From an uncultured Conexibacteraceae bacterium (lineage in GTDB: Bacteria > Actinomycetota > Thermoleophilia > Solirubrobacterales > 70-9): a DNA stretch of 64,000 nt. Position numbers and translations under genes: made by a program. The notes under the pieces were generated by a model. It made no database searches, had not been told where the DNA came from, and saw only the letters and a list, made by a program, of their open reading frames with translations. Position 1 is the first letter of the stretch, and each line of letters begins with the position of its first letter. Shown in pieces: positions 29,433 through 55,220 of the stretch. The stretch is from assembly GCA_964536955.1 (NCBI GenBank), contig CAZHZI010000002.1, positions 11,050-75,049 on the forward strand, written 5' to 3'.

Positions 29433-29441
29433 GCGCGCTTC

Positions 29442-30026
29442 ATGCTCAAGCGCTCCTGTTTGACCGGCGCCTTGGCGCTCTGCATGCTCGCTCATTCGGG
29501 CGGAGCATACGCAGCATCTGTCCACGCGGCCCCCGGCGATCCCCCTGCGGGGAGCCCCTCGGGACAGATCTATGAGCTGCCTTTCGAGAAGGGCCGCTCA
29601 GACGCCGCGCCGAAGGGCAGCGGCGGCACCAGCGCTGGAGGCGGGGGTGCCGCCAGCGCTGGAGGCGGTGGCGAAGCGACATCCCCCACCGACGATGCGT
29701 CAGTGGAGCCGTCGCTCTACAGGTCGGAGAACAACTTCGGCTCGTCGTCGCAGGTACCCGGGAATCCCTCCCCTGAGAACAGCGCCTCAGGTGGCGAGGG
29801 CAATGCGACGGACAACGGACATGAAGACGATGCTGCGGGAGGCGCCACGGGGACGGGGTCGAGCAACGGAGGCGGGCCTACGCGAATCGGAGTCGCGGCC
29901 AGTGGTGTCACAGGCTCCGGCAACACCTCCCCAGCCGGCAACTTCGCCCTGCTTGGCGTCATCGCCCTGATCGCGGTCGCGGTCGGAGCCGCCTCGCTCA
30001 AAGCGAACCGGCTCAGGGCACGGTAG
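29442..30026 (+). CDS. Secreted low-complexity Gly/Ser/Ala/Pro/Thr-rich protein with C-terminal TM anchor and basic tail
   Basis: Clear signal peptide (MLKRSCLTGALALCMLAHSGGAYA). ~140-aa low-complexity region (GSGGTSAGGGGAASAGGGGEATSPTDD...NSASGGEGNATDNG...GSGNTSPAGN). C-terminal FALLGVIALIAVAVGAASLKANRLRAR. No recognisable family. Confidence 0.6.
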   Translation: MLKRSCLTGALALCMLAHSGGAYAASVHAAPGDPPAGSPSGQIYELPFEKGRSDAAPKGSGGTSAGGGGAASAGGGGEATSPTDDASVEPSLYRSENNFGSSSQVPGNPSPENSASGGEGNATDNGHEDDAAGGATGTGSSNGGGPTRIGVAASGVTGSGNTSPAGNFALLGVIALIAVAVGAASLKANRLRAR

Positions 30027-33887: not shown

Positions 33888-34688
33888 CTAGCGCGGGGAG
33901 CCCAAGCCCAGCGCGAAGATCAACGGCACGATCGCGATCGCGATCCCAACCCCGGCGTAGACAACCGATCGCCGCTGCGCCGGGGACGACGCCTTCCCCT
34001 GTATGCGCTGCCAGCCAAGGATGGCCGGCAAGATCAGCGTCTGGCACAGGACGACGAAGTCCTGAGCCAGCGAACGCGACCGCGCGTAGACGAGATCGAG
34101 CGCAACCTTGTCCGGCAGCAGCTGATCCCGGTAGTAGGCCTCCGGGTCGCCATGCAGGCTGAGGAGCCTCGCTTCCACGCCTGCGTACCGCAACTGGGTG
34201 GGTCCGGTGATGCCCGGGGGCACCGCCAGGATCTGGCGGTAGTCCTCGGCGTGCATGTCCACGAACTCGTTCAACTCCGGTCGCGGCCCCACAAAGCTCA
34301 TCTCGCCGCGAAACACGTTCCACAGCTGCGGTAGCTCGTCCAACCGAGCCCTGCGTAGGAACCGGCCGACGGGCGTGATCCGGAGGTCCTCTGCGCCGGC
34401 GATCGCGTTGCCGGCGACACCGATCTTCATCGTGCGGAACTTCAGCATCTCAAAGGCCCGGCCCCCCCTCCCGACCCTCCTGGCGCGATAGACGATCGGC
34501 CCAGGGGAGTCGAGAAAGACGGCGAGGGCGACCAGCATGGCCACCGGCAAGACAAATGGAACGAGCACGACAAGTGCGATCAGATCGAAGGCGCGCTTGG
34601 CGGACATCCAGCCCGCAGCGGAGACCGGAACGCCTCCCAGGACGGCGACGCTGGAGGCCACTTCCGGCTGCTGGTCGGATTGCCTCAT
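33888..34688 (-). CDS. Small monotopic phosphoglycosyl transferase (PglC/WbaP-C-terminal-domain type)
   Basis: KRAFDLIALVVLVPFVLPVAMLVALAVFLDSPGPIVYRARRVGRGGRAFEMLKFRTM, RITPVGRFLRRARLDELPQLWNVFRGEMSFVGPRP. Start set at MRQSDQQ (34688); 34766 and 34889 are alternatives. Confidence 0.8.
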   Translation of the reverse strand: MRQSDQQPEVASSVAVLGGVPVSAAGWMSAKRAFDLIALVVLVPFVLPVAMLVALAVFLDSPGPIVYRARRVGRGGRAFEMLKFRTMKIGVAGNAIAGAEDLRITPVGRFLRRARLDELPQLWNVFRGEMSFVGPRPELNEFVDMHAEDYRQILAVPPGITGPTQLRYAGVEARLLSLHGDPEAYYRDQLLPDKVALDLVYARSRSLAQDFVVLCQTLILPAILGWQRIQGKASSPAQRRSVVYAGVGIAIAIVPLIFALGLGSPR

Positions 34689-34819
34689 CTGGTTAGCCGG
34701 AGGGTACTGAGGGAAGCGCTGGGAAAAACGTTGAACGTCTTCGGAGCAATCGCTACTGTAGATCATCGGTCCGGAGTTGGCTGCGGGCGAGAGGTCCAAC
34801 CGCTTAGGGGGTACTGCGT

Positions 34820-35974
34820 TTGAACTGGGACGTGCCGCTGTGCCGGCCCGCATTTCGCGATGAGGAGCTTGCTGCACTGGTCGAGACATATCGGTCCGGC
34901 TGGCTGACCGTCGGTCCGCGGACAGCCGAACTCGAGTCGGCTTTTTGTGCCTACACGGGAGCTCGCCATGCCGTGGCTGTCAGCAGCTGCAGCGCCGCCC
35001 TCCATCTGGCCACCTTGGCTGCGGGGCTGAGCGAGGGAGACCAGGTCGTGGTCCCCTCGCTGACCTTCACCTCGACGGTGAACGCCATTACGCACGTGGG
35101 CGCGGTCCCGCGCTTTGCCGATATCGCCGACGTCACTCAGCCGTGGCTATCTACCTCGGCGGTGGAGGCGACGCTCGACCACCGCACGGCTGCCGTGATG
35201 ACGATGGCCTACGGAGGGCATGTAGGCCAGGTCGTCGAGCTTGCCGAGCTTGCCGAGCGCATGGATCTGATTTTGCTCGAAGACGCGGCTCATGCATGTG
35301 GCTCCAGGATCGGCGGCCGCCACGCCGGCACCTTTGGCCTCGCCGGCGCCTTCAGCTTCTCCGCCAGCAAGAACATCGGCATTGGCGAGGGTGGGATGCT
35401 CGTCACCGACGACGACGAGCTGGCGGAGCGCGTCCGCGAAGGTCGTTGGCATGGGCTCAGCTCCTCCAATTGGGAGCGCCACCATGAAGCTGCGCCCGAA
35501 TACGAGCTTGGCGATCTCGGTTTCAACTACCGGATGGACGATCCCCGCGCCGCCCTCGTCCACGCCCGCCTGCGCTATCTCGACCATGACAACCGCCGGC
35601 GGGGGGCCATCGATTCGGCCTACCGGGAGGCGTTTGCCACCTATGAGCTGATCGAGCCCACCGCACCGTCCCCAGCGGGGGAGCCGGCGAGCCACTGCAT
35701 GTTCACGGCCGTGCTGGACGAGAGCGTCGACCGCGAGGCCTTCAGGAGATCCTTGGCAGACAAGGGGGTGCAGACGAGCGTCCACTACCCGCCGGTCCAC
35801 AAGAGCGACGTCTATGCCCGGTTAGGGGTCTCGCTGCCGGTCACCGAGGCGTACGCGCGCCGCTCCGTGACCCTGCCGCTGTTTCCCGAGATGGAGAGCT
35901 GGCAGCAGGAACTCGTGGTGGAAGCGATTGGCAAGTCCCTTGGGCACTTGTCCCCGGCCACTATCGCCGCCTAG
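34820..35974 (+). CDS. DegT/DnrJ/EryC1/StrS-family sugar aminotransferase (second copy)
   Basis: TTG start preceded by aGGGGGt, 7 nt upstream. LCRPAFRDEELAALVETYRSGWLTVGPRTAELESAFCAYTGARHAVAVSSCSAALHLA. Lys region: FSFSASKNIGIGEGGMLVT. Confidence 0.8.
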   Translation: MNWDVPLCRPAFRDEELAALVETYRSGWLTVGPRTAELESAFCAYTGARHAVAVSSCSAALHLATLAAGLSEGDQVVVPSLTFTSTVNAITHVGAVPRFADIADVTQPWLSTSAVEATLDHRTAAVMTMAYGGHVGQVVELAELAERMDLILLEDAAHACGSRIGGRHAGTFGLAGAFSFSASKNIGIGEGGMLVTDDDELAERVREGRWHGLSSSNWERHHEAAPEYELGDLGFNYRMDDPRAALVHARLRYLDHDNRRRGAIDSAYREAFATYELIEPTAPSPAGEPASHCMFTAVLDESVDREAFRRSLADKGVQTSVHYPPVHKSDVYARLGVSLPVTEAYARRSVTLPLFPEMESWQQELVVEAIGKSLGHLSPATIAA

Positions 35975-36688: not shown

Positions 36689-37968
36689 AAGAGGACGTCG
36701 GGCATCTCTAGCTCAATTGCCTCCAGCGGCAACGCCGAGGTCCAAAGGAAGGCCAAGCGCTGGAAGTGCTCGGCCAGCCAAGGGATCAACTGCAGGCAGG
36801 AAGAGTCACCCAGGACGACTGCGCGGGGCAATTCCTCGGCATCGGCGATCTCATATAGGTGAGGGGCGCGAGTCGGCGAGACTTCGAGGTGTTCGGGGGC
36901 CGGCATTCGCCGAGCGCGCAGTGTCGATGCGTCCACCTCGTCGACGTCTTCCTCCCATTGCTCGTGGTCGGCATCCTCGACAAAGCCGTCATCGACCAGC
37001 GAAACCTTCGGCTTACCGGCGAGATCGCCACGGAAGCCTGGAACCCTCACGAAGGTTGCCTCGGCGGGCAGCAACGGCTCCAGTGAAATCACCGCTTTGG
37101 ACGCCTCCTTCAAGAGAGCGCGATACCCGAAGAACGCCCCGCGATGGTTCCAACGGGAGTCGGTTCGGTTAAAGACCTCACCATGGCGGCGCGCACGGCG
37201 TAAATCCGGCAATAGATCGAGCAATGCGCCGCCGTTGACGTCGCGCAGAGCGGCGTTGATCTGCGTCACCGGTCGCGTAGCGCTGATATGGACGCCGTCG
37301 GGAAGCAATTCGCCGTACACGCGCTCCTTCATCGGGACCACTGCGACCACAGTGGGGATGCCGAGCTCCCTCAAGCGAGCGTGACGGGCGGTCAGAGCTT
37401 CCTGCCGGCCCTCGATCTCCTTGCGGGAAAGCAAACGACGGCCTCGAAGCTGACTCAGCGTGAGGTTGCGATCGTCGCGAAGAAACAGCCATCTGTCCTT
37501 GCCAATCAGCGCACAGTCACCGGGGTCGGGGGGCTCCTCTTTCTCAGGGACGAAGGCCACCGCGGAGCGACCTTCCGGTGTGAAGGTCGTCTGATTCCAA
37601 GCGTCGGCCGGAGAGCGCACTACCGTCGAAAACGACTCGACAGCGACCACATCGGTCCTGTTTTGCCCGGCCAGCACGCGGATCTTGTGCGACGCGCTTT
37701 CGGTAAGGCTCTCGGGGAGCGAGATGTCGAAGCCGTGGCGCCCCTGGCCGATGCCTGCATCGGCAAGCGCGGGTCGCTCGACATCGGCCGCCCCCCTGGC
37801 CACAGACCGCCCATCGACTTCGATCTCGACCTCCACTGCCTCGCCCGGTCGCCCCGGGTCCCAGGCCCAGCCAATGGCACGTCCGTCGATGACGGCCTCG
37901 AAACGACCCTCTATCGTCGCGGCCGCTTTGCCGGTCTCAGTCTCCTCTACCTGCTGAACCACGCTCAA
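36637..37968 (-). CDS. AlgX/AlgJ-like (SGNH-type polysaccharide O-acetyltransferase-like) protein with N-terminal beta-sandwich domain
   Basis: Central strings resemble the AlgJ/AlgX fold: IGKDRWLFLRDD, LGIPTVVAVVPMKERVYGELLPDG, FNRTDSRWNHRGAFFGY. N-terminal IDGRAIGWAWDPG...VEVDGRSVARGAADVERPALADAGIGQGRHGF module. The start (TTG 37968 or GTG 37962) overlaps the upstream stop. The homology call is tentative. Confidence 0.45.
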   Translation of the reverse strand: MSVVQQVEETETGKAAATIEGRFEAVIDGRAIGWAWDPGRPGEAVEVEIEVDGRSVARGAADVERPALADAGIGQGRHGFDISLPESLTESASHKIRVLAGQNRTDVVAVESFSTVVRSPADAWNQTTFTPEGRSAVAFVPEKEEPPDPGDCALIGKDRWLFLRDDRNLTLSQLRGRRLLSRKEIEGRQEALTARHARLRELGIPTVVAVVPMKERVYGELLPDGVHISATRPVTQINAALRDVNGGALLDLLPDLRRARRHGEVFNRTDSRWNHRGAFFGYRALLKEASKAVISLEPLLPAEATFVRVPGFRGDLAGKPKVSLVDDGFVEDADHEQWEEDVDEVDASTLRARRMPAPEHLEVSPTRAPHLYEIADAEELPRAVVLGDSSCLQLIPWLAEHFQRLAFLWTSALPLEAIELEMPDVLFHVVTERFLISRDFAGS

Positions 37969-40900
37969 GCAGCCGCCCGGTCACGATCGAAACGGCGCGC
38001 ATACTCCCGTGAGAAAAGGAGATACTCCGATAGAGCGGCGCGAGCAATCGAGTAGTGCGCCGCGGTCCGCCGTGCTCCCTCCTGGAGGTGCCGAACCCGA
38101 TCCCGGTCGGTGACGAGCTCGGCGAGCACATCAAAGGCGGAAACGGGATCGAGTGTGTCGACCGCGCAAGCGTTCTCCCCGTCGACGACGAACTCCCATA
38201 CTCCTCCAAGCCGGGGAACGATCGCTGTGCATCCACACGCCATCGCCTCCAGCGCGGTGCGGCCGAATGCCTGATACAGAGACATGTCAAGGAACACGTC
38301 GGAGCGGGCAAGGACCTTTGCCACATCCTGGCGAGTGAGGATGCCGCAATGGCTTTCGAGCAAGGCGGTCGAGTCGGTGAGGTTGGCCATCTCCTCGCCC
38401 GCGCAACCGAAGGTGACGATTTCCACCGTGGCTCCAAAGCGCCGGCGCAGCTGTTCCAGCACCGCCAAGGTGGCGGTCGGCTGACGCCGGGGCGTGCGCG
38501 GACGAACCATCGCCGCGACACGAAGGGGCCCGTCCCCGCGGACGATCTCAGGGGGGACGAACAGGCGCTCGTCGATGCTCGGCTCGACCTTTTCAACACA
38601 CAGTCCGTGGTGGTGCCCGATGACGTTGCACAGCCAGTGGGTCTTGGCGAAGAGAAGGCAGTCCTGAATCGCAGTGTAGGACTCCACCGCCTCGCGCACG
38701 TCGCCTGATTCGTGTGCGGTGAGAAACGGCTCGTAGTCCTGGACGTAGTAGGCAGGAAGGAAGTCGTCGCGGCGGGATCGGATCTCGGCGAGCATGGCAA
38801 TCGACTTGAAGTGGGTGGCGGAGATCACATTGGCGTCGGCGGTTTTGGCGGTGAGCTCATCGGTGTCGGCGAAGGTCTGAAAAATCTCACCGGCGTCGTC
38901 ATAGGCAGCTTGAGCGCGCCGCTGGGCATGAGCGGCAAGCAAGATCCGCGCAGGCACTCCCAGCTCGCGCAGACCTTTCACCTCCTGGTAGATCGAATGA
39001 GAGCCACCCGAGCCTCCGTCGCCCAGACCGGGGAGGATGAAAACGACGTTGAGTGGATCGCGCTGCCCGACATCGAGCGCGGCAGCGAGAGATCTCGGGC
39101 TTGAAAGAGCGTCTCCGACCGCATTTCTCAAAGGGCCCAGCGAGGAATCTTTCTCCATGCCGCTCACCAGTGCCTGAATTTCCTCGCGGCCGTGTTTGTC
39201 GAGGAAGATCTCGTAGTTGCGTCGGGCGATTGGCTGACGGGCCTCGGCGGTATATGACTTCGACTTCGCGTGAAAGACGTAGCTGTCGTCGACGACCGCC
39301 AGCTCGAAACCGGCCTGGGCGGCGCGGTAGCTGAAGTCATTCTCTTCGCAGTAGCCGCTGGCGAAATTCTCCAGGTCGAAATAGCCGATCGCATCGATGA
39401 CCGCACGCTTGATCACGTAACAGAACCCGTTGATGAATGGCAGGCGCGGACGCAGGCGAGGGGAAAGGCGGTCGAGGAGTTTCGTTATGCCGTCCTCCGT
39501 GACAAAGGACGGCAATGGGTTCGTCGCCCAGGCGCCATCGTCACGAAGGCGGGGAACCGACTGGTGGCTGGCGGCGTTGGAGAGAGGGCCGAGGATTCCG
39601 ATCCGCTCGTCCGACTCGCCACAGGCGACGATCCTCGTCAGCCACTCGCTGGTCACGATCGTGTCGCTGTTGAGAAGCACTACGTAGTCCCCAGAGGCTG
39701 CCCGCATGCCAATGTCCGCAGCGATCGCGTAGCCGTGTGGCGGAGTCTGGTTGTCGATCAAGGTCATCTCTGGATTCGCGGTCGACGCTTCCTCGAGGTA
39801 AGCGGTTGTCTGCGCGTCGCTTCCGTCATTGACGACGATCAGGTGAAACGGATCGATCGACTTATGGATCAGCGACCACAGGCAGCGACGCACGTCGTCG
39901 AGTGCGTCGTGGACACAGACGACGACGTCAACGCTGGGACCGCCTGCCGATGGAGCGTCGTCGGCGCCAATGAGTATCCGGCGACGATCGCGCGAGGATG
40001 GAAGCGCCATCGGATCCGCGCCTGCCGCGGTAGCCGGGCGGTACTCCGTCGCGAAGCTACGCCTTGCCTCCCGCTCCACGTCGGTGGCACGCGCGTCGAC
40101 TGCCTCAGCAGTGAGTGAGCGGCGGACCGGCTCCTCGATGTCGGCGTGCTCGGCAGCCGTAAGCCTGGCGGTCGCGGGGGACTGCTCACCGGCCGCTCCA
40201 AGCTCACGCAGCGTCACCTCGTGCAGCTTCGCCAGCTCGCTGAGCCGGCTTTCGAGCGCGGAGCGCTCCGCCTCCGCGACCTGGGCTCGGGCTCGGGCGC
40301 GCCCGAGCGCCGTTTGGAGATTTGCAAGCTGGGCGTTTACTCGCTGCATCACTAGCTCACGCTCCTCGAGCATCTCGCGCAGCTCGGCCGCGGCGTGACG
40401 CGCCGTGTCGGCCCCGGCCCGCACCTCGTCCACTGTGCGTTCGAGGCTTTCCTGCGCCTCTTCGAAGTCCGCCACCAGCCGCGATCGGGCGGCAACCGCC
40501 TTTTCAAGCTCTCGCTCCCGGTCGGCGAGCCTGCGCTCGGCCTTCTCTGCGGCCGCGGTGTTCGCACGGGCCGTCGCCCGGACCTGCTTCAGCTCCTCTT
40601 GCAGCTCTGCGAGCCGGTTTCGGTCGCGCGCATGCCGGTCTTCGGCGACCTCGACCTCTTCCTGGGCAACGCGCGCCTTGCGGCGTTCCCCGGCCAGCTC
40701 CTCCTCCAGGGCGAGCTCGCGCAGCTCGGCCGCGGCGTGACGCGCCGTGTCGGCCCCGGCCCGCACCTCGTCCACTGTCCGGACCTGCTTCAGCTCCTCT
40801 TGCAGCTCTGCGAGCCGGTTTCGGTCGCGCGCATGCCGGTCTTCGGCGACCTCGACCTCTTCCTGGGCAACGCGCGCCTTGCGGCGTTCCCCGGCCAGCT

Positions 40901-41930
40901 CCTCCTCCAGGGCGAGCTCGCGCTCCCCGAGGGCGTCCCGCTGCTTTTCGAAGCGCCGGGCCCGGCGCTTCGCGTCGTCCAGCTCGTCCCGCATTTCCCG
41001 CAAGGCGCGAGTCGCGGCCTTGGCCTCCTTGAGCGACTGTCCGCGCCGATCGTCCGCCTTGGCAGCCTCATCCTTGAGCTGGTCGAGCCCCGCACGGACT
41101 TTCGACCCGTCCCGCGTCGCCTTGACGCGCCTAAGCTCGGTGTCGATCCGCGCCCGTTCGAGGGTCTCGACGCGGGAGCGCAAGAACTCCGCCTCGCGTG
41201 TCGCCTCGAGCAAGTTTCGCAGGCCCTCGTGCTCTTCGAGCAGATCTTCGGTCGCGAGAACGCCCAGCCCGTGCTGTCCCGATATCTCATACAGGCGCCA
41301 GTCGCTCTTGCTCTGGCCGAGAAAGTCGTCAATTCCCCCGCGGACGCCACTGTGCTGCGCGGCTGAGACCGTCGCGTTGGCGAGATGGCTGTTCAGGCCG
41401 TCGTCGACCAGCTCGTCGGAGTCGGGATGAATGCCACGTCGCTGAAAGGGCCGGCGTTTGTCCTCGGGGATATTGTCGGGGTCGTAGTAGAGGTCCCGCC
41501 GCCCATAGGGCCAGGCGATGTCATGGAGCGCGACCAAAGGCGGCCGAGCTTCCTCGTCCAAAGCGGAGGACTCGAGGAGCTTGAGCTCGTTGAGAACCGT
41601 GTGCCAGTTGTGATCCCCGTCAACAAGGGCGAGGTCGACCGTCTCGAGGGTCGGCAGGACGTCGAGGCTCAGGCCTTGGTGAAATACGAAGGCTTCCGGG
41701 TGGCTCGCCTTCAGCTCCTCCACGTCGAACTGGGGACGTGGGTCGATCGAGTGCACAACAGCTCCGTGTGACTCTGCGTATTCGACGAGGGCCCGGGTCG
41801 TGATGCCCGTGTCGGCGCCGATTTCGAGGATCCGCCGCGGACCCAACGCATCGATGAGAGGCTGCAGGAGCACGTCCCAGAACGCCACCATCGACGGCCC
41901 GTGCGCAGGGTTGAGATCAGGTTTGGCCAT
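37965..41930 (-). CDS. 1321-aa multidomain glycan-assembly protein: N-terminal class I methyltransferase-like (Methyltransf_24/CmcI-like) head, ~350-aa coiled coil, GT2 domain, GT-B (GT4-like) domain
   Basis: Head: RRILEIGADTGITT, LALVDGDHNWHTV, HDIAWPYGRRD. Coiled coil about aa 240-590, charged heptad-like (ELALEEELAGERRKARVAQEEVEVAEDRHARDRNRLAELQEELKQVR x2). GT2: VDVVVCVHDALDDVRRCLWSL, LIVVNDGSD, VLLNSDT. GT-B: VVFILPGLGDGGSGGSHS, YYVQDYEPF, QAFGRTALEAMACGC. Confidence 0.8.
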   Translation of the reverse strand: MAKPDLNPAHGPSMVAFWDVLLQPLIDALGPRRILEIGADTGITTRALVEYAESHGAVVHSIDPRPQFDVEELKASHPEAFVFHQGLSLDVLPTLETVDLALVDGDHNWHTVLNELKLLESSALDEEARPPLVALHDIAWPYGRRDLYYDPDNIPEDKRRPFQRRGIHPDSDELVDDGLNSHLANATVSAAQHSGVRGGIDDFLGQSKSDWRLYEISGQHGLGVLATEDLLEEHEGLRNLLEATREAEFLRSRVETLERARIDTELRRVKATRDGSKVRAGLDQLKDEAAKADDRRGQSLKEAKAATRALREMRDELDDAKRRARRFEKQRDALGERELALEEELAGERRKARVAQEEVEVAEDRHARDRNRLAELQEELKQVRTVDEVRAGADTARHAAAELRELALEEELAGERRKARVAQEEVEVAEDRHARDRNRLAELQEELKQVRATARANTAAAEKAERRLADRERELEKAVAARSRLVADFEEAQESLERTVDEVRAGADTARHAAAELREMLEERELVMQRVNAQLANLQTALGRARARAQVAEAERSALESRLSELAKLHEVTLRELGAAGEQSPATARLTAAEHADIEEPVRRSLTAEAVDARATDVEREARRSFATEYRPATAAGADPMALPSSRDRRRILIGADDAPSAGGPSVDVVVCVHDALDDVRRCLWSLIHKSIDPFHLIVVNDGSDAQTTAYLEEASTANPEMTLIDNQTPPHGYAIAADIGMRAASGDYVVLLNSDTIVTSEWLTRIVACGESDERIGILGPLSNAASHQSVPRLRDDGAWATNPLPSFVTEDGITKLLDRLSPRLRPRLPFINGFCYVIKRAVIDAIGYFDLENFASGYCEENDFSYRAAQAGFELAVVDDSYVFHAKSKSYTAEARQPIARRNYEIFLDKHGREEIQALVSGMEKDSSLGPLRNAVGDALSSPRSLAAALDVGQRDPLNVVFILPGLGDGGSGGSHSIYQEVKGLRELGVPARILLAAHAQRRAQAAYDDAGEIFQTFADTDELTAKTADANVISATHFKSIAMLAEIRSRRDDFLPAYYVQDYEPFLTAHESGDVREAVESYTAIQDCLLFAKTHWLCNVIGHHHGLCVEKVEPSIDERLFVPPEIVRGDGPLRVAAMVRPRTPRRQPTATLAVLEQLRRRFGATVEIVTFGCAGEEMANLTDSTALLESHCGILTRQDVAKVLARSDVFLDMSLYQAFGRTALEAMACGCTAIVPRLGGVWEFVVDGENACAVDTLDPVSAFDVLAELVTDRDRVRHLQEGARRTAAHYSIARAALSEYLLFSREYARRFDRDRAAA
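40374..40436. repeat. Dispersed third copy (63 bp, 100% identical) of the last 63 bp of the 201-bp unit (40716..40778)
   Basis: ctcgcgcagctcggccgcggcgtgacgcgccgtgtcggccccggcccgcacctcgtccactgt occurs at 40374..40436 and at 40716..40778. It encodes TVDEVRAGADTARHAAAELRE twice. Confidence 0.95.
40578..40923. repeat. Perfect in-frame tandem duplication: 201-bp unit (40578..40778) followed by a 145-bp second copy (40779..40923), inside the coiled-coil coding region
   Basis: 40578..40722 and 40779..40923 were aligned by hand and are 145/145 identical. The period is 201 bp, or 67 codons. Confidence 0.95.
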
Positions 41931-41985
41931 GGCTCAACGCGCCCCTGGCACCTGCGGTTTGAGCGTCAACATGCCGCGCCCCGGC

Positions 41986-43503
41986 TCATCCGCGGCTGGC
42001 GTCCAATGACTCGGCGGCCCTCTGGCGGGGATCCGCAATCTCCGCTGCTTCGGAAAGGGGCCCGGGATCGCGCTCGGCGGCGGCAAGCGCGGCGTCCAGA
42101 TGGTTGGGTCGGGGCTCGCGCCGCAAGCTGACCAGGCGGATGAGGCGTGCCATTCGCCGACCCACGCGAGCCCTGCGAGTCATCCCGGCCGTGCGCAGAT
42201 GCTCGGCGACTTCGTCGAGCTGGGTGCGTGCCATCCGCAGCTCATCTCCCACGCGCTCCAGCTCACCGCGAAGACGCTCGCTGTCGGCCTCGGCAGCCTG
42301 TAGCGCGTCCTGCCGATGCGCCAATCGGCCCTGTGCCAGCTGCTCGCGCTCCACCGCGTCACGCAACTCGCGCGCTCGCCCATCGGCCTGCTCTTCCAAC
42401 TCCGACACTCGGCTGCGCATGCCTTCCGCCGCCTCACGCTCGATGTCGAGACGTTGCCGCATGCCCTCGAGGAGAATCGCCGCTTCGGCTGCCGCCTTGC
42501 GCTCCTCATCCCGCTCAGCCGAGAGCTCCTTGATCTGCACCGAGCGACTTGCCAGATCTTCCTCCAAGCGCTTCAGCTGCCATTCGAGTGCGCCGCGCCG
42601 AGCACGGTGCTCGGCAAGTTCGGCGAGCACCGTCGAAGTTTCCACATCCGCTGCGGCCGGCGCGTCCGTGGCAGGGAGCGGCGCATCCGATTCGACGAAT
42701 GCCTCCGGCGGCCCCGCGGACACCCCCTGCCGCAAGGCCGCGGCCTCAACCTCGACCGCCAGGCGCGCCAGCTCCGCCTGCCTGGCCTGGCCCCCGAGAA
42801 AGCGAGCGGATCTCAGTCGCCTGAACACGGAGCCGAGGGCGGGGTTCTCTTCGAGGACGCGCGCGTCGGCAAGCACCGCGACGCCGTGAAATCCCGGAAT
42901 TTCGGCAATTCTCCAATCCCGCGTCGAAGCGGCGATCGCGTCCTCAATCCCGGTCATGACGCCCGAGCGAGGCTCGAAGTCCCGCTCGGCGCAGGCCGGC
43001 ACGAGGCGAAGCCCGCCGGGGCGAGGCTCCCGATGACCCGGAACGAGACCAAGCTGCGAGTGCGCCCTCCGTTCCGCCTCGGGAATGGCGGCGGGATCGT
43101 GGTAGCCGTCACGGCGGCCGTAGGGCCAGTGGACATGGTGAACGACCACGACAGGCGCGGCGCGATCTGCACGCTCGGCCGATAGCTCGAGCATCGTCAG
43201 CTCGCTGCTCACGGTGTACCAGTTCGGATCGCTGTCGAGCAGGGCCAGGTCGACGGGGCCCAACCGACCGATCACGCTCACGCTTCGCTCCGCATGGACC
43301 CTGAGGCGCCCCCCCGATTCCTCAGGCAGACGCGGATCGAGCCGCGGCGACGGATCGATCGCATGCAGAACGGCGGTTCGGGCGCCTGGTGCGGCCAGCG
43401 CACGCTTCGTAAGGCGCCCGGCGCCGGCGCCTGTCTCTACGATCGTCCGCGGTTGGAGTGCTTCGATCAGAGGAGCAACAACGGATGCGAAAGACCGGTG
43501 CAT
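41986..43503 (-). CDS. 505-aa methyltransferase-like head plus coiled-coil protein (paralogue of the N-terminal half of 37965..41930, no GT domains)
   Basis: Head: RTIVETGAGAGRLT, LALLDSDPNWYTV, HHVHWPYGRRD. C-terminal ~170-aa charged coiled-coil-like region (LEWQLKRLEEDLASRSVQIKELSAERDEERKAAAEAA...RLRGELERVGDELRMARTQLDEVAEHL). Confidence 0.7.
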   Translation of the reverse strand: MHRSFASVVAPLIEALQPRTIVETGAGAGRLTKRALAAPGARTAVLHAIDPSPRLDPRLPEESGGRLRVHAERSVSVIGRLGPVDLALLDSDPNWYTVSSELTMLELSAERADRAAPVVVVHHVHWPYGRRDGYHDPAAIPEAERRAHSQLGLVPGHREPRPGGLRLVPACAERDFEPRSGVMTGIEDAIAASTRDWRIAEIPGFHGVAVLADARVLEENPALGSVFRRLRSARFLGGQARQAELARLAVEVEAAALRQGVSAGPPEAFVESDAPLPATDAPAAADVETSTVLAELAEHRARRGALEWQLKRLEEDLASRSVQIKELSAERDEERKAAAEAAILLEGMRQRLDIEREAAEGMRSRVSELEEQADGRARELRDAVEREQLAQGRLAHRQDALQAAEADSERLRGELERVGDELRMARTQLDEVAEHLRTAGMTRRARVGRRMARLIRLVSLRREPRPNHLDAALAAAERDPGPLSEAAEIADPRQRAAESLDASRG

Positions 43504-43516
43504 CGAAGGGTCGAGT

Positions 43517-44395
43517 CTAGGCGGTTCCGTCGGCCCCGGAAGGGCTCTCGGGGCGACGGCCCGTGAGGTGGTGATAGCGGGCGGGCGGCTTCCCTGGCGC
43601 CCGGTGCGCTGACTTCACGTCCTGGAACCCGGCTCTCCGCAGTTCCCGCCGCCCCGCGCGCGGGGACGTCAGCCTTACGGACGAACGAGCGCGGCCACGG
43701 GCGGAGAGCCTCAATACCGGCCGCGCAAGCGGGGTGGGCAGTTGATGGACGAGCGGAAGTCCGGTGAATGGGTCCAGCGGGGAGGTGCGACTGGGATCGC
43801 GCGCGACCACCCATCCCCCCGGCCGGAGGATGCGCAGCACGTGAGCAAGCCCACGGCGGCGATCCTTCCGATCGGTGACGTAGCAGAGGGAGTTGTTGAG
43901 TAGGACCAGATCGAAATGGCCATCGGGGAGCGCCATCTCCTCAAGCCACCCGCGGGTAAACGAAGCGTCGAGCCTGAGGCTCTCGGCGAGCCGGGCTCCC
44001 ACCTGAAAGCGCTCCTCGTTTGGATCCATCCCGACCACCCGGGCGCCTGCGTTTGCGAAGTAGAGGCTGATCGCGCCAAACCCGCATCCCATGTCGGCAA
44101 CGGTCAGCCCCTCGACCGAATCCCGACCGGTGCGCCCGGCGTATAGATCGAACAGCAGACCTGCGCGTTGCGGCACCAGCGTCGAGTTCGTGTCCAGCGT
44201 CCGCAGGCCCTCCTCTCCCTCAATCGATTCGCCGCGCACTCGGTAGTACTCGATGATCTCGTCCCTGAGGCGACGAACGACCCGCGCGAAGTCCTTGTCT
44301 CGCTGCACGGCGAGCATGATGGTCGATCGCCGTCTCGCCGAGGCTCCCCCGCTATCGTCGGCGCCGAAAATGCGCGCTTTATGGTCTTCGGTCAT
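43517..44395 (-). CDS. Class I SAM-dependent methyltransferase
   Basis: SAM loop: LTVADMGCGFGAISLYFANAGARVVGMD. Also FDLVLLNNSLCYV and LRPGGWVVARDP. The start at 44395 would overlap the divergent gene start (44370) by 26 bp; the internal Met at 44317 is an alternative. Confidence 0.75.
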   Translation of the reverse strand: MTEDHKARIFGADDSGGASARRRSTIMLAVQRDKDFARVVRRLRDEIIEYYRVRGESIEGEEGLRTLDTNSTLVPQRAGLLFDLYAGRTGRDSVEGLTVADMGCGFGAISLYFANAGARVVGMDPNEERFQVGARLAESLRLDASFTRGWLEEMALPDGHFDLVLLNNSLCYVTDRKDRRRGLAHVLRILRPGGWVVARDPSRTSPLDPFTGLPLVHQLPTPLARPVLRLSARGRARSSVRLTSPRAGRRELRRAGFQDVKSAHRAPGKPPARYHHLTGRRPESPSGADGTA

Positions 44396-46940
44396 CGCCC
44401 CGCTGCTGGAAGCGTGCCGACCTGCCGTGGTTGTGGATTTTGGCGGTGCAGGCGAGGACCTCCAGGACGCGCTGGTTCAGGCAACGCGCGAGTACGAAAG
44501 CGACGTGCGCGACGTGCGCCACCCAAACCTGGACCTCGACGCCGCCCCCCCACCGGATCTCGCGCTGGTTCACTGCGAGCCGAGCTGGTACGCGGTAACG
44601 GAACGGCTCGACCGCCTCGCCGAAGCGGCACGCGCCGGGGGCGCTCCGCTGGCGTTGACGCTGGTCCACGGCGTCGATTGGCCCACGGGCCGTCGCGATG
44701 GAGTGCTGACTGCGGTAGAGGACTTCCTCAATCGCGGCGACGATGGCCTCGAGCTCGTCCATCTGCCCGGGCTTGGCGGGACCGGGATCCTGCTGGCGAA
44801 AGAACGGCTCGAGGGGAAGAGGTCGGAAGAGCTGGTCAAACTGATCGAAGGGTGGCGATTCAGCCCGCCAGCCCTGGCACAGCTGGCAGCCGTGGATGCC
44901 GCCCGCGTGCGGGGCCAGGCGGGGTTCGTCGAGCTGCGATCCGAGCTCGAGGCGATGCGGGCGGGAATGGCGACACAGGCCTCAGCGGAGACCGCGGAGT
45001 TGCGCACCCGGGTTGAGGATCTCGCGGCGCGGAACGCGGCGCTGGCCGAAGCGCTGGCCCGGCGCGACGCACAGCTCGCCGGGGGTGAGCCCGACGATGA
45101 GGTGGGCGTCGGCGGCGCAGATCGATCGCCTCTTGAGCAGCTCGAAGGGCAAGCGCGCCTCGAAGGAGTCGCCGAAGCCTGGGGCCCGATTCCCCGGGAT
45201 CGCCGCAACGTGCTGCTCGCCACAGACGAGGCGGGACTACCAGGAGAGCCGGAGCCGTTCCACGCAGTCGTCCGGGCTGTCGCGGGTGCCGAACAGCTCT
45301 GCCGTTGTCTGTGGTCCCTGCTTGACCGAACCGACCGCAGGCTGAGGCTGACGCTCGCGATCGACAACGAGACGACCGCGGAGATTCGGCGTCTGGCAGA
45401 TGCGATCGCGGCCGCGGAGCCGGCGGTGGGCATCGTCGAAGGGGCCGTCGACGGCGCCTCGGGCTGGCGAATGCTGGTCGACTCTTCCGTGACCTTCGGA
45501 CACGGAACCATCCGCAGCCTCTTCAGCGCAGCGGCCAAGTCGCCGTCGAAGCCCGTTGCGGCAGCATCGGCGGACACGCTCGGCACTCCTCGGTGGGCGG
45601 GGCCGGACGCGCTTGCCCTGCTGCTTGCCGGAGCCGTCCACGACGGCCCCGGCCTGTCAGATCTCGCCGCGCCGTGCGCCGTCCTGCCACCGGCCGTGCC
45701 CATCGCCGAGCCAGAGCTCGTCGCGCTGGGAGCCGTGGTGGAACAACCTGGAGCGGCCCGCCACGGCCTAGTCCCAACGCTTGGATGGCTTGACGACGCA
45801 CTTGGCGACGAGCAAACGCTCGCGGAGGCAATACGCGAACGGGTGCGCGAACCCCTTGCGATCGCCTACGTTCTGCCTGGCCTGCCGCCCGAGGGATCCG
45901 GCGGATCGCATTCCGTTTTCCAGGAAGCCCTCGCCCTGCGCTCCTGTGGAATCCGCGTCCGAGTTGCGGTCGAGAGCGAGTTTGCCGGGGGCGCGGCCCT
46001 CCTCTACCCCGCTGCCGCCGACCTGATCGAGGGCTACGACACGCCGCAGGCGCTCGAAGCCGCGCTCGACGGATTTGACGTCGTCGTGGCAACCGAGGCC
46101 CCATCAGCGTGGCTGGTGGCCCAACACGCCCGCCGGCACCCGGATGTCCTAGGCGCCTATTACGTACAGGACTACGAGCCGCTCTTCTCGCCCGAGCGAG
46201 GGCCGAGCGCCGATGCGGCCATGCTCTCCTACCGGCAGGCGGCAGACTTGCTGCTCTTCGCCAAGACGCATTGGATAGCGAATGTCGTAGGCGCCGCTCA
46301 CGGCGTGCCGGTGGCGAAGGTCGACCCCAGCTTGGACACCGAGGTCTTCCACGCCCGCGGCCGACGGGAGGCGCCCACCGCTCCGATACGCGTGCTGGCG
46401 ATGATCCGTCCGCGAACGCCACGACGGCAACCTTTGGAGACCCTCGGCGCGCTGGAACGCATCCAGCGTCTGCTTGGCGATCGCGTCGAGTGCCTGTCGT
46501 TCGGCTGCCCAATCGACGAATTCGACGAGCTACAGGGAAAGGTCGACGCCGTCAATGTGGAGCACTTGGGGGTGCTCGGTCGCGAAGAGGTCGCGGAAGC
46601 CCTGCGGCGCTGCGATCTTTTTCTGGATCTATCGATCTACCAGGCCTTCGGCCGCACCGGGCTGGAAGCGATGGCTTGCGGGGCGGTGCCGATCCTGCCG
46701 GGCAGCGGGGGGACGCGAGAGTTCGCCGTCGCCGGCTCAAACAGCCTGCTGCTCGACGACACCGCCGACGAGGAGGCGGTCGTGGCCTCCGTGGAGGCCC
46801 TCGTGCACGATCCGGAGCGTCTCGGGCGCCTGCGTGCGAACGGCATCGAAACTGCCCATTCCTTCTCCGTCACCCGAGCCGCTCTGAGTCAATACGCCTG
46901 CTTCGCTGCACATTTCGCGACAAGGCGATCCGCGTCGTGA
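44370..46940 (+). CDS. Multidomain paralogue: degenerate methyltransferase-like head, short coiled coil, degenerate/truncated GT2-like segment, GT-B (GT4-like) domain
   Basis: Start MRALWSSVIAPLLEACRPAVVVDFGGAG aligns with the N-termini of the two paralogues. Also LALVHCEPSWYAV and HGVDWPTGRRD. Coiled coil: ELRSELEAMRAG...RVEDLAARNAALAEALARRDAQL. GT2-like remnant: FHAVVRAVAGAEQLCRCLWSL...MLVDSSVT. GT-B: IAYVLPGLPPEGSGGSHS, YYVQDYEPLF, QAFGRTGLEAMACGA. Confidence 0.75.
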   Translation: MRALWSSVIAPLLEACRPAVVVDFGGAGEDLQDALVQATREYESDVRDVRHPNLDLDAAPPPDLALVHCEPSWYAVTERLDRLAEAARAGGAPLALTLVHGVDWPTGRRDGVLTAVEDFLNRGDDGLELVHLPGLGGTGILLAKERLEGKRSEELVKLIEGWRFSPPALAQLAAVDAARVRGQAGFVELRSELEAMRAGMATQASAETAELRTRVEDLAARNAALAEALARRDAQLAGGEPDDEVGVGGADRSPLEQLEGQARLEGVAEAWGPIPRDRRNVLLATDEAGLPGEPEPFHAVVRAVAGAEQLCRCLWSLLDRTDRRLRLTLAIDNETTAEIRRLADAIAAAEPAVGIVEGAVDGASGWRMLVDSSVTFGHGTIRSLFSAAAKSPSKPVAAASADTLGTPRWAGPDALALLLAGAVHDGPGLSDLAAPCAVLPPAVPIAEPELVALGAVVEQPGAARHGLVPTLGWLDDALGDEQTLAEAIRERVREPLAIAYVLPGLPPEGSGGSHSVFQEALALRSCGIRVRVAVESEFAGGAALLYPAAADLIEGYDTPQALEAALDGFDVVVATEAPSAWLVAQHARRHPDVLGAYYVQDYEPLFSPERGPSADAAMLSYRQAADLLLFAKTHWIANVVGAAHGVPVAKVDPSLDTEVFHARGRREAPTAPIRVLAMIRPRTPRRQPLETLGALERIQRLLGDRVECLSFGCPIDEFDELQGKVDAVNVEHLGVLGREEVAEALRRCDLFLDLSIYQAFGRTGLEAMACGAVPILPGSGGTREFAVAGSNSLLLDDTADEEAVVASVEALVHDPERLGRLRANGIETAHSFSVTRAALSQYACFAAHFATRRSAS

Positions 46941-48839: not shown

Positions 48840-51800
48840 ATGTCAGATCCTCGCCTCTACGAGCAGCTCTTCGACGAGAACCTCAGGTCGACCGGAGGTC
48901 CCACTTCGCTCGCTCGCCTCGGCGCGTTGGAGCAGCAGGTCGCGCAGCTGACGGAGGAGCTCGCCGAGCGCGAACAGGCCCTTGCCGAGGCCAGGACCGA
49001 AGTCTCGGAGGGTCGACGCGATGACGAGGCGCGCGAGCGCCGATCGCGAGCGCTGGAGGTACGACTCCAGGCTGCCGAGGACGCGCTTCGGATCGCGGCT
49101 TCCGAACGCGATGCGGCCTTGCGCGAAATCGATCGCAAAGCCAACGCAGCGAGCAAGCTCGGCGAGCGGGTCCGCGACCTGGAGGGCGAGGTCCCCCAAC
49201 GGGAGGGCGAGATCGGCGAGCTGCGCCGCGCTCTCGGCGAGGCTGAGCTGCAAGGCCGGCGCACGGCATCCGAGTACGGCGCCCGGATGCGGGAGCTGGA
49301 ACAGCTGGTCTCCACGCTCGCGGGCGGGCTCGCGCAGACGAAGGAAGACATTGACCGTGCGGCCGACTCGCGTGCCTGGCGCTGGGGTCATGGCGCCAGC
49401 AGAGCTCTGCGGCGGTTGGCTCTACGACGCAATGTGACCGAGGGGGCGCTGGCCAGGTCGCTGAAGCGAATCGAGCAGATCCAGCAGGCAAATCTCGCCC
49501 TTCGTCAATCGGCGAGCACGCCACCGACTCTTGAGTCTCTCGTCATCGAGCCCCTTGCCGAGACGAGGCCCGCCGACAGTCGCAGCGAGGCCGAACGGAC
49601 AAGGATGAGAGCGGAGCTGGCCTTGGAGATACGGGAGCGCCTCGGGTCTACTCCCGAGAAAAAGTCCTGGCCCGGCGTGTCGATGGTCGTGCCGACACGC
49701 AACGGACACGACCACATAGAACGCCTTGTGACAGGGCTCGCCGAGCGAACCGACTATCCGGAGTTCGAGCTGATCGTCGTCGACAACGGCTCCGGCGACG
49801 GAACGGGGGAGTATCTAGGCCAACTCGGCGTGCCCTTCGGAGTATCGGTGGTTACGAACGCTGAGAGCGTTTCCTTCTCCGCGGCTAATGCCCAAGGCGT
49901 CGGGCGCGCCCGTCATGACCTCCTCCTCTTTCTCAACAACGACATCGAGCCGTTCGAGCCCGGCTGGCTTCGCGAATTGGTTGCGGCCCACGACCGCGAA
50001 GGAGTCGCCGCGGTCGGCGCCACGCTGCTTCGCTCGGAGGCGGGCGACGACCCCTCGACGCGCGATCGCACCGTCCAGCACCGCTCGATCAAGTTCCGCG
50101 CGAGCGCCGACAGCGTCCGCCCTTACAACTCGAGTGATGGAGAGGACCTCTTCGCGGCCCGGTTCGGAATCGAGGATCACGCGCCGGCGGTGACCGCCGC
50201 CTGCCTGTTGATCGACCGGGCCAGCTTCGGGAGCGCGGGAGGCTTCGCTGACGGCTACCGCTACGGAACCGAGGACGTCGATCTCGGCCTCAAGCTCACG
50301 GCCTCCGGTGGCGTGGGCGCCGTGGTGGCCACCGGGCGCTCGATCCTCTACCACCGGGAGTCCGCCACACAGGATGCCGAAGGGCGCGATTTCAAGCACA
50401 ACAACAGGATGGCGAACCGGCGCCTGTTCCTTGAACGCTGGGGACCTCGGGTGCGACGCGACTATCGCCTCGGCCGGCTGCGTGGCGACCCGGCCTGGAC
50501 CGACGGCCAGGGCCCACACATCGCGATCACGGTCACCAGCCTCGATCCCGCCGACGGCTGGGGCGACTGGTACACCGCAAACGAGATGGGCGATGCGCTG
50601 GCCGACGTCGGCTGGCGGGTCAGCTACATCGAGCGAAAGGGCGACGCCTGGTACGCGCTGCCGGATGACCTTGACTACCTGCTCTCGCTGATGGACCCGT
50701 TCGACCTGCGCCGGGTTCCCGACGACGTAACCATGATCGCCTGGGTCCGCAACTGGACGGAGCGCTGGCTCGAACGGCCCTGGTTCGAGCGCGCTGACGT
50801 CATCCTCACCTCATCCCAACCCTCAGCGGAGGCCATAGAGAGCGCCACCGGGCGCTCGACAGTGCTGTTTCCGCTCGCGACGAACCCCACTCGTTTTGCG
50901 CCTTGTCCACCGGACCCGGACTTCGATGCCGACTACGTCTTTACCGGCAACCACTGGGGGGAGGACCGCGACATCCAAATGGGCCTGCAGCCACGAAAGG
51001 ACGAGCGGTTGGATGTCTACGGCAGGGGATGGAGCGAGGTGGCCGGACTGGCCGCCTATGCACGTGGCTCGGCTCCTTACAGCGAGCTTCCCAAGATCTA
51101 CTCCTCCGCGAAGCTCGTGCTTGACGACACCTCAGGTCCGACGCTGCCATACGCCGCGGTCAACAGCCGCGTCTTCGACGCCCTCGCCGCGGGAACGCTG
51201 GTGATCACCAATTGTGAGGCGGGCGTGCGCGAGCTCTTCGACGAAGAGTTCCCGGTCTGGGACTCCGCCGGCAGCTTGCGCAGCCAGCTCGACTCGCTGC
51301 TCGGCGATGAGCGGCGGCGCACCGATCTGGCCCAGCGCTATCGCAACGAGGTGCTGCGCCACCACACCTACGCCCACCGGGCCGGTCAGCTCGCCGAGAT
51401 GCTCGAGGACCACGAGCGGAAGCTCTCCTTCTGCTTGAAGATCGGCGCGCCGACCTGGGAGGAGGCCGAGCGCTGGGGCGACCTGCACTTCGTCCGCGCG
51501 CTGGAGCGGCAGCTGAGGCGCCGCGGCCATCGGTGCCTGATTCAGGTGCTGGAGGAGTGGGAGGACAGCGCCGGCCTCAGCTATGACGTCGCGGTGGTGA
51601 TCAGGGGCCTCAGCCGGCACCATCCGAAGCCCGGCCAGTTCAACGTGCTTTGGAATATCAGCCATCCGGCTGACATGACAGGCGAAGAATGCGATGGCTA
51701 CGACCTGGTCTGCGTCGCCTCGGAGCAATTTGCGGCAACCCTCCGAGAACGCACTGCCACACCAGTCGTCGTGCTCGAACAGGCAACCGACCCGGCGATC

Positions 51801-55106: not shown

Positions 55107-55220
55107 CGGCGAAAGGCTAACAGTCGGGAAGCGCTGGGCGTCCGCGAGCTCCGGCTGTAAACGGGGCTATAGCCGGGGACCGTGTCAGCGCTCCAATCCT
55201 GGTGGCCTATTCTTGCGCCG

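Follow-up and report, generated by a model that had tools for sequence, protein, structure and literature searches.

A methyltransferase-coiled coil-glycosyltransferase protein and two divergent paralogues in a glycan gene cluster of an uncultured Conexibacteraceae bacterium: a candidate coiled-coil-spaced polymerase and terminator

We have analysed a 64-kb stretch of DNA from an uncultured Conexibacteraceae bacterium of the order Solirubrobacterales (contig CAZHZI010000002.1, positions 11,050 to 75,049 of the forward strand, assembly GCA_964536955.1), hereafter the window, the whole of which consists of glycan genes. Our subject is three neighbouring genes in it, whose products we call P1, P2 and P3, and which share an N-terminal domain, the head. 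Coordinates are positions in the window, and those of the features discussed are collected in Table 1. In P1 the head is joined through a long heptad-rich segment to two glycosyltransferase (GT) modules, a layout that suggests a polymerase and a chain terminator combined in one polypeptide.

The open reading frames (ORFs) that the initial annotation had assigned to P1 and P2, with their coordinates and lengths of 1321 and 505 residues (aa), were borne out by our analysis. The P3 ORF also exists, but its reported length of 895 aa is that of the longest ORF, which starts at 44253; the segment 44370..46940 specifies 856 aa, in agreement with the NCBI-derived product. A separate gene for a 292-aa methyltransferase sits between P2 and P3, so that the minus-strand genes read MTase(292 aa)-P2-P1-AlgX-like. 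The gene that abuts P3 head-to-head is the one for the 292-aa methyltransferase and not, as had been proposed, P1. In 14 Solirubrobacterales loci this methyltransferase gene has kept its place upstream of P1 or P2. In the window its longest ORF (ATG 44395, minus strand) and that of P3 (ATG 44370, plus strand) overlap head-to-head by 26 nt, and a second gene caller took 44317 and 44319 as the starts for this pair; because the start calls in 44317-44395 differ, the start codons and the divergent promoter are ambiguous.

Pairwise BLASTP matches far beyond chance confirmed that the three heads are mutually related: P1 and P2 are 40% identical over 246 aa (E 2e-43), P1 and P3 22% over 271 aa (E 2e-9), and P2 and P3 32% over 135 aa (E 6e-11). 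A WPxGRRD motif is found in all three, as had been noted. Other features previously described as common to them were upheld only in part. The D-G-D-H-type motif is intact in P1 (DGDH) and altered in P2 (DSDP) and P3 (HCEP); the Rossmann-like S-adenosylmethionine (SAM) loop does not extend to P3, whose glycine-rich loop is degenerate; and the charged heptad segment, said to follow each head directly, is separated from it in P2 by a Pro/Gly-rich spacer of ~55 aa (aa 230-287). Similarly, P1 and P3 had been credited with homologous GT2 and GT-B modules. This holds for GT-B (41% identity over 391 aa, E 7e-82) and not for GT2, for which P3 gives no Pfam match and has DSS in place of DxD, and every motif quoted earlier in support of both modules falls within GT-B.

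Pfam matched the P1 head to Methyltransf_24 (PF13578; aa 35-121) with a score of 48 bits against a cutoff of 26. An AlphaFold2 (AF2) model of P1 aa 1-300, built from an alignment of 51 sequences, had a predicted local distance difference test score (pLDDT) of 94.5 and a predicted template modelling score of 0.90, and showed a Rossmann-like fold of seven strands and, from aa 248 to the end of the model, a long helix. When the head was compared with the PDB by Foldseek, all matches were SAM methyltransferases, so that the earlier assignment of the head to this class is supported by fold as a class I enzyme. The best match was MeT1 of Mycobacterium hassiacum (6g7d), an O-methyltransferase (OMT) of methylmannose polysaccharide (MMP), and the next were family-3, cation-dependent OMTs and CmcI; matches to MeT1 and the family-3 enzymes had E values of 7e-6, template modelling scores of ~0.5 when normalised to target length, and 12-17% identity. 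Searches of PDB sequences with the head, as a single sequence or as a head-only profile, gave marginal matches to OMTs only, those of the profile being to family-3 enzymes. In the head-only profile alignments the head DGDH was aligned with the OMT motif DADK.

The residues invariant in the head family are E36, G38, D63, D104, D106, H107, H136, D137 and the WPYGRRD motif, and the P1 head thus has the fold, the SAM loop and the acidic and histidine residues that characterise the Methyltransf_24 and cation-dependent OMT class. Because of the fold matches, the alignment of DGDH with DADK and these family-invariant residues, we infer that the P1 head is an active, probably metal-dependent O-methyltransferase. 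The proposal that it is of the WbdD methyltransferase type was not sustained. WbdD was absent from the 50 best Foldseek matches of the head in the PDB and from the PDB profile matches, the nearest relatives being MeT1 and the family-3 cation-dependent OMTs, and Pfam found no kinase domain, so that the WbdD combination of methyltransferase plus kinase is lacking.

At the other end of P1, Pfam detected a GT2 domain (aa 665-899, 69 bits) and a GT4 domain (Glycos_transf_1, aa 1150-1288, 48 bits). The DGS, NSD and FGRT.LEAMACG motifs of these modules are invariant across the family, the invariant GT2 residues among orthologues being D702, G703, S704, N754, S755 and D756, and the PDB sequence matches of the GT-B module were exclusively to GT4 enzymes. 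P1 shows both a DxD-type motif in its GT-A module and an E-x7-E-type region at the C-terminal side of GT-B.

We examined the segment between the head and the GT modules with a heptad-register score of our own and with a Fourier test of hydrophobic periodicity against 1000 shuffles of each sequence. A 3.5-residue periodicity was evident in P1 aa 245-600 (z=5.7), in P2 aa 288-445 (z=6.3) and in the N-terminus of a 1171-aa GT encoded nearby (z=6.5), the observed value being reached by none of the 1000 shuffles in any of these cases, and the P1 head and GT2 module, used as controls, gave z<0.5. These regions of the three proteins contain 0-0.6% Pro (0-0.3% in P1 and P2) and ~47% charged residues. 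Among 44 proteins of the window, only P1, P2, P3 and the 1171-aa GT were heptad-rich. The description of the linkers as coiled-coil-like is therefore supported for P1 and P2, where composition and periodicity are those of heptad-rich helices; the helix of P3 was significantly periodic only when Ala was excluded from the hydrophobic set (z=4.0).

More than 50 full-length P1 orthologues with the same four-part architecture (1122-1375 aa) were found, mostly in Solirubrobacterales metagenome-assembled genomes; those that carry a name are labelled 'glycosyltransferase [Solirubrobacterales bacterium]'. Among 52 of them, the linker ranges from 190 to 498 aa (mean 314, standard deviation 51), whereas the catalytic domains are nearly constant in length (head 228±7, GT2 266±2 and GT-B 392±12 aa), as the initial annotation had anticipated. 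The P1 linker, at 429 aa, is the second longest of the 52. Orthologues are 45% identical to P1 in the linker, compared with 61-73% in the catalytic domains.

The DNA coding for the P1 coiled coil also contains a perfect direct repeat of 145 nt, at 40578-40722 and 40779-40923 on the minus strand (100% identity). The two copies lie 201 nt, or 67 codons, apart and in frame, and the linker is ~67 aa longer thereby. In an independent Logan assembly of SRR6868923 a contig breaks exactly at this repeat, and the duplication is therefore probably real. A further repeat pair occurs in the same coding region (40354-40439 and 40696-40781). TRF reported no tandem repeats in the sequence.

An exhaustive HMMER search with the head returned 1336 representative clusters (50% identity) at E<=1e-10. 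In the 150 best matches the head was N-terminal without exception, and 67 proteins were 1000 aa or longer; where these best matches were of at least 330 aa, heptad-rich sequence followed the head directly in 119 of 137. We also scanned a genome collection for loci encoding the family and obtained 80, of which 41 are from Thermoleophilia and 39 from other phyla. A stand-alone Methyltransf_24 protein in L082 was considered as a head-family member and rejected, since it lacks WPxGRRD and so belongs to a different subfamily. The arrangement with three heads recurs in L002, L004, L026 and L037 and in the metagenome contig L083, and in most loci from Solirubrobacterales a single head (that of P1) is accompanied by a divergently transcribed GT4 and the 1171-aa GT.

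P2 resembles the N-terminal half of P1 in having a head and a heptad-rich region, and it carries no GT. Its head gave no Pfam match. Motif I and D63 are kept, and two positions are substituted (H107P and D137H). P2 orthologues in five other genomes (L002, L004, L026, L037, L083) likewise keep the SAM loop and D63, and have DGDP and HN or HH in place of DGDH and HD (H107P, D137N/H), together with a conserved tail. Because these changes are lineage-wide and affect two positions that are otherwise invariant in the family, the catalytic status of P2 appears uncertain from its sequence. The earlier suggestion that P2 is a stand-alone ruler and terminator like WbdD is thus supported as to layout (head, coiled coil, basic tail, no GT) and left in doubt as to the terminator.

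In 50 of 99 stand-alone head-plus-coiled-coil homologues (P0003-P0088), the C-terminus is formed by a motif S-x-x-W-[RK]-x-[GT], as in SPSWRLTKPLR, SRRWRLG and SRQWKVG, which may be a helix for membrane association or docking. The basic tail of P2 (42094-42168) is a degenerate version of it.

The 1171-aa GT has no head; it begins with a heptad region of ~155 aa, just after which comes a SRAWRWGH...LRR motif that is conserved in ~24 orthologues. It adjoins P1 homologues in 31 of 41 Solirubrobacterales loci, and also in Paenibacillus. The coiled-coil modules of P2 and the 1171-aa GT are weakly similar in pairwise comparison (E 0.007), and because the start of the coiled coil and the motif are alike in the two proteins, we suggest, on these sequence features, that they might pair.

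P3 had been described as a partly degenerate partner, and our results agree with this. Its AF2 model (pLDDT 85.9) consists of a truncated α/β head, a 71-residue helix, a GT-A-like remnant of pLDDT >90 and an intact GT-B module, whose GT4 domain retains every invariant residue shared with P1. Fourteen orthologous clusters, of 852-899 aa and 49-72% identity, make up the P3 family, and all of them lack the methyltransferase and GT2 catalytic motifs: they have HGEPNW and VHG at the corresponding sites and no glycine-rich loop, and they keep WPTGRRD. In shorter relatives (634-645 aa) the GT2 remnant is gone entirely. Also, P3 of the window lacks, at 44670-44700 (aa ~100-112), about 45 head residues (SYPNPxAIPxGARQPH...) that are kept in 13 aligned orthologues, a loss that, judged from the alignment, looks like further lineage-specific erosion of the pseudo-methyltransferase domain.

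The cluster around these genes, at 26-64 kb, encodes a Wzy_C protein with tetratricopeptide repeats (Wzy_C-TPR), WlbA-D-like proteins, a Bac_transf phosphoglycosyl transferase, DegT, several methyltransferases, an AlgX-like SGNH protein, P1, P2 and P3, a CE4-like protein, the 1171-aa GT, a GT61, two sulfotransferases and a flippase of the multidrug/oligosaccharidyl-lipid/polysaccharide (MOP) family, which is the only candidate exporter in its half of the window. The membrane proteins within reach of the 41 Thermoleophilia loci were only MOP-like (5 loci) or Wzy_C-TPR (4 loci). The initial annotation had pointed to the flanking DNA as the place to look for wzm/wzt genes of an ATP-binding cassette (ABC) transporter, and none was found in the window or within 10 kb of the 41 Thermoleophilia orthologues, the genes in these clusters being instead those for a MOP flippase, Wzy_C-TPR and Bac_transf. 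In other phyla, homologues with the P1 architecture do adjoin wzm/wzt: a Wzt-like ATPase lies near homologues in 11 of the 39 loci, including those of Paenibacillus and Planctomycetota. In Paenibacillus provencensis the order is Wzy_C, then wzm-wzt-[MT24-CC-GT2-GT4, 1430 aa]-[1171-like GT]-ugd-rmlACBD, where MT24 and CC stand for the Methyltransf_24 domain and the coiled coil.

Table 1. Coordinates of the genes, domains and neighbouring features considered in the text; (+) and (-) denote the strand.
Feature	Position	Strand	Characteristics and evidence
P1	37965..41930	(-)	1321 aa; head, coiled coil, GT2, GT4 in that order; ORF and Pfam
P1 head, aa 1-235	41226..41930	(-)	EIGADTG, D63, DGDH (104-107), HD (136-137), WPYGRRD (140-146)
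P1 heptad-rich helical linker, aa ~245-600	40131..41198	(-)	Heptad score, composition, periodicity, AF2 helix
P1 GT2 module, aa 665-930	39141..39938	(-)	Pfam; DGS and NSD motifs intact
P1 GT-B (GT4) module, aa 931-1321	37965..39140	(-)	Pfam Glycos_transf_1; weak WsaF_C match
P2	41986..43503	(-)	505 aa; without any GT; ORF call, BLASTP, heptad scores
P2 parts			Head aa 1-229; Pro/Gly-rich spacer 230-287; heptad region 288-445; basic amphipathic tail TRRARVGRRMARLIRLVSLRR ~446-470
292-aa methyltransferase	43517..44395	(-)	Class I (Methyltransf_25/11); first gene of minus-strand operon; Pfam
P3	44370..46940	(+)	856 aa; Pfam detects GT4 only; AF2 model
P3 parts			Head remnant aa 1-165; long helix 166-236; disordered 237-275; GT-A-like remnant 297-470; intact GT4 495-856
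1171-aa GT	48840..52355	(+)	Heptad region aa ~22-177, SRAWRWGH...LRR motif, GT2, two Glyco_trans_1_2; Pfam
MOP-family flippase (Polysacc_synt_3)	55182..57191	(+)	Pfam; 12-14 predicted transmembrane segments; homologues in syntenic clusters
Wzy_C + TPR membrane protein (ligase/oligosaccharyltransferase-like)	27501..29597	(-)	Pfam; syntenic in L002, L082, L083
Bac_transf phosphoglycosyl transferase (initiation on lipid carrier)	33888..34889	(-)	Pfam; syntenic in L002, L082, L083

Proteins of comparable layout are known. In ABC-transporter-dependent assembly, a coiled-coil protein with a distal terminator acts as a molecular ruler, as has been shown for WbdD and WbbB (PMC11231755). ORF6 of Klebsiella pneumoniae O7 consists of a methyltransferase(-kinase), a carbohydrate-binding module (CBM), a coiled coil and two GT2 domains, and its orthologues either carry GTs or stop after the coiled coil (Kelly et al. 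2024, PMC11231755). ORF6 resembles P1 in uniting, within a single polypeptide, a methyltransferase at the N-terminus, a coiled coil in the middle and two GTs at the C-terminus, with an extra GT in a separate protein, and those of its orthologues that end after the coiled coil resemble P2. The two differ in that ORF6 has a kinase and a CBM, adds methyl-phosphate, contains a CgnL-like methyltransferase and two GT2 domains, and is encoded in a wzm/wzt cluster, whereas P1 has neither kinase nor CBM, a family-3-OMT-like head, a GT2 paired with a GT4, and no ABC transporter nearby.

WsaE of Geobacillus stearothermophilus is a characterised enzyme with a methyltransferase and two GT domains, for whose methyltransferase chain capping has been proposed, and in Geobacillus S-layer glycan clusters wzm, wzt and wsaE overlap (PMC2943079). 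Its likeness to P1, an N-terminal methyltransferase followed by two GT domains, is one of layout and gene order, to which a weak WsaF_C match of the P1 GT-B module may be added. The WsaE cluster shares with the window a Bac_transf (WsaP), a GT4 (WsaF), a Wzy_C oligosaccharyltransferase (WsaB) and a TPR protein (WsaA), and the Paenibacillus P1 homologue follows wzm-wzt with overlapping stop and start codons, as wsaE does. WsaE differs from P1 in context, in that it works with Wzm/Wzt. The idea that the architecture is novel in kind could not be maintained, since the layout is shared by both ORF6 and WsaE (PMC11231755, PMC2943079). What sets the present proteins apart is the family-3-like OMT head, the pairing of GT2 with GT4, the pseudo-enzyme paralogues and a MOP flippase without Wzm/Wzt in cis.

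Two further systems invite comparison. WbdD of Escherichia coli O9a and K. pneumoniae O3 resembles P2 in its N-terminal terminator, extended coiled coil, C-terminal membrane-proximal region and lack of a GT; unlike P2, it is a methyltransferase-kinase of another methyltransferase subfamily, recruits the polymerase WbdA and is ABC-transporter-dependent. WbbB of K. pneumoniae O12 and Raoultella, like P1, unites a terminator, a coiled coil and two polymerase GT modules in one protein, but its terminator is a β-Kdo (3-deoxy-D-manno-oct-2-ulosonic acid) glycosyltransferase and there is no sequence similarity beyond generic GT folds. The suggestion that P1 is a WbbB-like polymerase whose terminator is a methyltransferase is favoured by its architecture and by the methyltransferase fold of the head. 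Of the features of this class of proteins, P1 and P2 possess the extended coiled coil, by our own test, and the distal N-terminal position of the putative terminator; Wzm/Wzt are not co-encoded in the window and are co-encoded with homologues in Paenibacillus, Planctomycetota and other phyla.

The nearest structural relative of the head, MeT1, methylates the end of a polysaccharide (MMP), and the DxDK and DN metal and catalytic motifs of such OMTs align with the head DGDH and HD. The head differs from MeT1 and the family-3 OMTs by an insert of ~55 aa and the WPYGRRD motif, and MeT1 differs from P1 in being a stand-alone enzyme whose substrate is an intracellular glycan, on which it acts at the reducing end. 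In view of the MeT1 match we considered whether the product might be an MMP-like polymethylated polysaccharide kept inside the cell; we judge this unlikely, as the cluster encodes a phosphoglycosyl transferase, a flippase and Wzy_C-TPR.

We favour, with moderate confidence, the reading that these genes specify a polymerase and terminator complex that is spaced by coiled coils and belongs to the WbbB, ORF6 and WsaE type, with P2 and P3 as accessory paralogues. According to this proposal P1, P2, P3 and the 1171-aa GT would form a cytoplasmic multi-protein machine that builds an envelope glycan on a polyprenyl-phosphate carrier. P1 would be polymerase and terminator in a single polypeptide, its GT2 and GT4 modules lengthening the chain and a parallel coiled coil of ~350 aa keeping the Mg-dependent-OMT-like head away from them. 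Because the head is held at that distance, the non-reducing end would come within its reach only after the chain has grown to a sufficient length, and would then be O-methylated and thereby capped. Experiments have demonstrated the same ruler logic in WbdD, WbbB and K. pneumoniae O7 ORF6, and it has been proposed for the WsaE methyltransferase. P2 would serve either as another terminator, of altered chemistry, or as a partner without catalytic activity. P3 would bring in one more GT4 activity and probably keeps its pseudo-methyltransferase head, its short helix and its pseudo-GT2 as structural or docking elements. We infer the capping and ruler functions from the architecture together with the natural variation in linker length; the oligomeric state and the route of export given here are likewise putative.

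Several points weigh against this proposal. Our coiled-coil assignment comes from our own test and not from MARCOIL or DeepCoil, and the P3 helix is weakly heptad-like. The putative processivity of the P1 GT modules, and the oligomeric state and orientation suggested for the coiled coil, are soft points. At least five other methyltransferases are encoded in the cluster, so that methylation may be an in-chain decoration and not a cap. No ABC ATPase or ABC-2 permease (Wzm/Wzt) was detected in the 64-kb window, within 10 kb of the orthologues at the 41 Thermoleophilia loci, or in two syntenic contigs that had been annotated independently; the MOP flippase, Wzy_C-TPR and Bac_transf are together the gene set expected of a Wzx/Wzy-type route. 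Also, we know of no glycan structure from any Solirubrobacterales, and a literature search for envelope glycans of this order found no paper.

That gene set and the missing ABC transporter would suit the main rival reading, a Wzx/Wzy-type assembly, in which non-processive multi-GT proteins build one large lipid-linked repeat unit that the MOP protein flips and Wzy_C polymerises or ligates, with the head methylating a sugar in each unit and the coiled coils serving as mere scaffolds and not as rulers. The restriction of nearby Thermoleophilia membrane proteins to MOP-like and Wzy_C-TPR types is in keeping with such a scheme, and the many extra methyltransferases and sulfotransferases point to heavy in-chain decoration. 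We nevertheless think it rather unlikely, since a repeat unit built by approximately nine GT modules would be unusually large, and homologues of P1 and of the 1171-aa GT occur in a classical Paenibacillus wzm-wzt cluster that also has Wzy_C, which makes Wzy_C compatible with a ligase or oligosaccharyltransferase role. A scaffold alone also leaves unexplained both the wide range of linker lengths beside domains of invariant length and the constant distal, N-terminal position of the head. It could be, alternatively, that the ruler-type polymerase and terminator is fully ABC-dependent, with wzm/wzt elsewhere in the genome and the MOP flippase serving another glycan. The family is linked to Wzt in other phyla, the window contains another glycan locus besides this one, of Wzx/Wzy type and with rml genes, at 1-22 kb, and at most Thermoleophilia loci no exporter of any kind lies within 10 kb. 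But ABC-dependent clusters normally carry wzm/wzt in cis, which was seen in none of the 41 Thermoleophilia loci and not in the window, and the MOP gene recurs inside the syntenic cluster; on balance we consider this version unlikely.

P2 and P3 might also be regarded as duplicates of P1 that are decaying and serve no function themselves, given the loss of catalytic motifs from the head and GT2 of P3, the additional ~45-aa head deletion in P3 of the window relative to its orthologues, and the changes in P2 at two family-invariant positions. Yet both ORFs are intact, the 14 P3 clusters have remained 49-72% identical with confidently folded remnants, the P3 GT4 keeps all of the invariant residues that it shares with P1, and P2 orthologues in at least five other genomes show the same substitution pattern and a conserved tail. 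Because P3 orthologues keep the degenerate domains and P2 orthologues the substitutions, selection is indicated rather than decay, and we judge loss of function very improbable.

The polymerase-terminator proposal has a bolder form, which we regard as quite unlikely, in which the coiled-coil strategy has become uncoupled from Wzm/Wzt in Thermoleophilia and uses a MOP exporter instead, with P1, P2, P3 and the 1171-aa GT perhaps forming a hetero-oligomer that tunes capping. Such tuning may involve pseudo-terminator paralogues with coiled coils of different length (~350, ~160 and ~70 aa) and a shared module composed of a coiled coil and SRxWRxG...LRR; for instance, P2 might rebuild a P1-like unit in trans by docking on the coiled coil of the 1171-aa GT, which has no head.

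To our knowledge, the coiled-coil polymerase and terminator strategy has so far been regarded as a hallmark of ABC-transporter-dependent assembly, and we know of ruler control of chain length by coiled coils only from a few Gram-negative O-antigen systems. The ~1,300 clusters of the present family, with a different head, linkers of 190-498 aa and one fresh duplication, offer a natural series for a test of the ruler outside Proteobacteria. That no ABC exporter was found nearby in Thermoleophilia prompts the question of whether another export route is open to such machines, and the conserved pseudo-enzyme paralogues that of how multi-protein polymerase complexes are organised. The practical value is limited, the host being an uncultured soil actinobacterium; a cultured Paenibacillus provencensis strain with a full-length homologue could serve as a model.

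Some other features of the window deserve mention. The locus at 1-22400 encodes a Bac_transf, several GT2s, rmlA/B/C/D, an O-antigen polymerase-like protein, a MOP flippase, FkbM-type methyltransferases and two GSDH-like proteins. The two Wzy_C (O-antigen ligase-like) proteins of the window, at 92-1603 (+) and 27501-29597 (-), both have C-terminal TPR fusions and recall the adjacent wsaB (oligosaccharyltransferase) and wsaA (TPR) genes of Geobacillus S-layer glycan clusters. Sulfotransferase genes are located at 53512-54330 (-) and 57239-58195 (-), and P-loop ORFs resembling adenosine 5'-phosphosulfate (APS) kinase are found in related loci (L018, 16605-17960; L028, 12878-14179); the presence of both suggests that the glycan of the cluster is sulfated as well as methylated. 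The gene at 47935-48792 (-) codes for a possible sugar deacetylase, a conserved 285-aa protein with no Pfam match and a CE4/NodB-like HDVD...H motif; it is found beside the cluster at 27 of 41 Solirubrobacterales loci. This protein and a conserved 259-aa neighbour were considered as Wzm-like permeases and rejected, as they have no transmembrane segments and the 285-aa protein has the CE4-like motif. Finally, the gene at 59037-61085 (+) fuses a methyltransferase domain to a C-terminus like the beta subunit of N,N-dimethylformamidase (DMFA2_C, E 7e-90), which is unusual in a glycan cluster.

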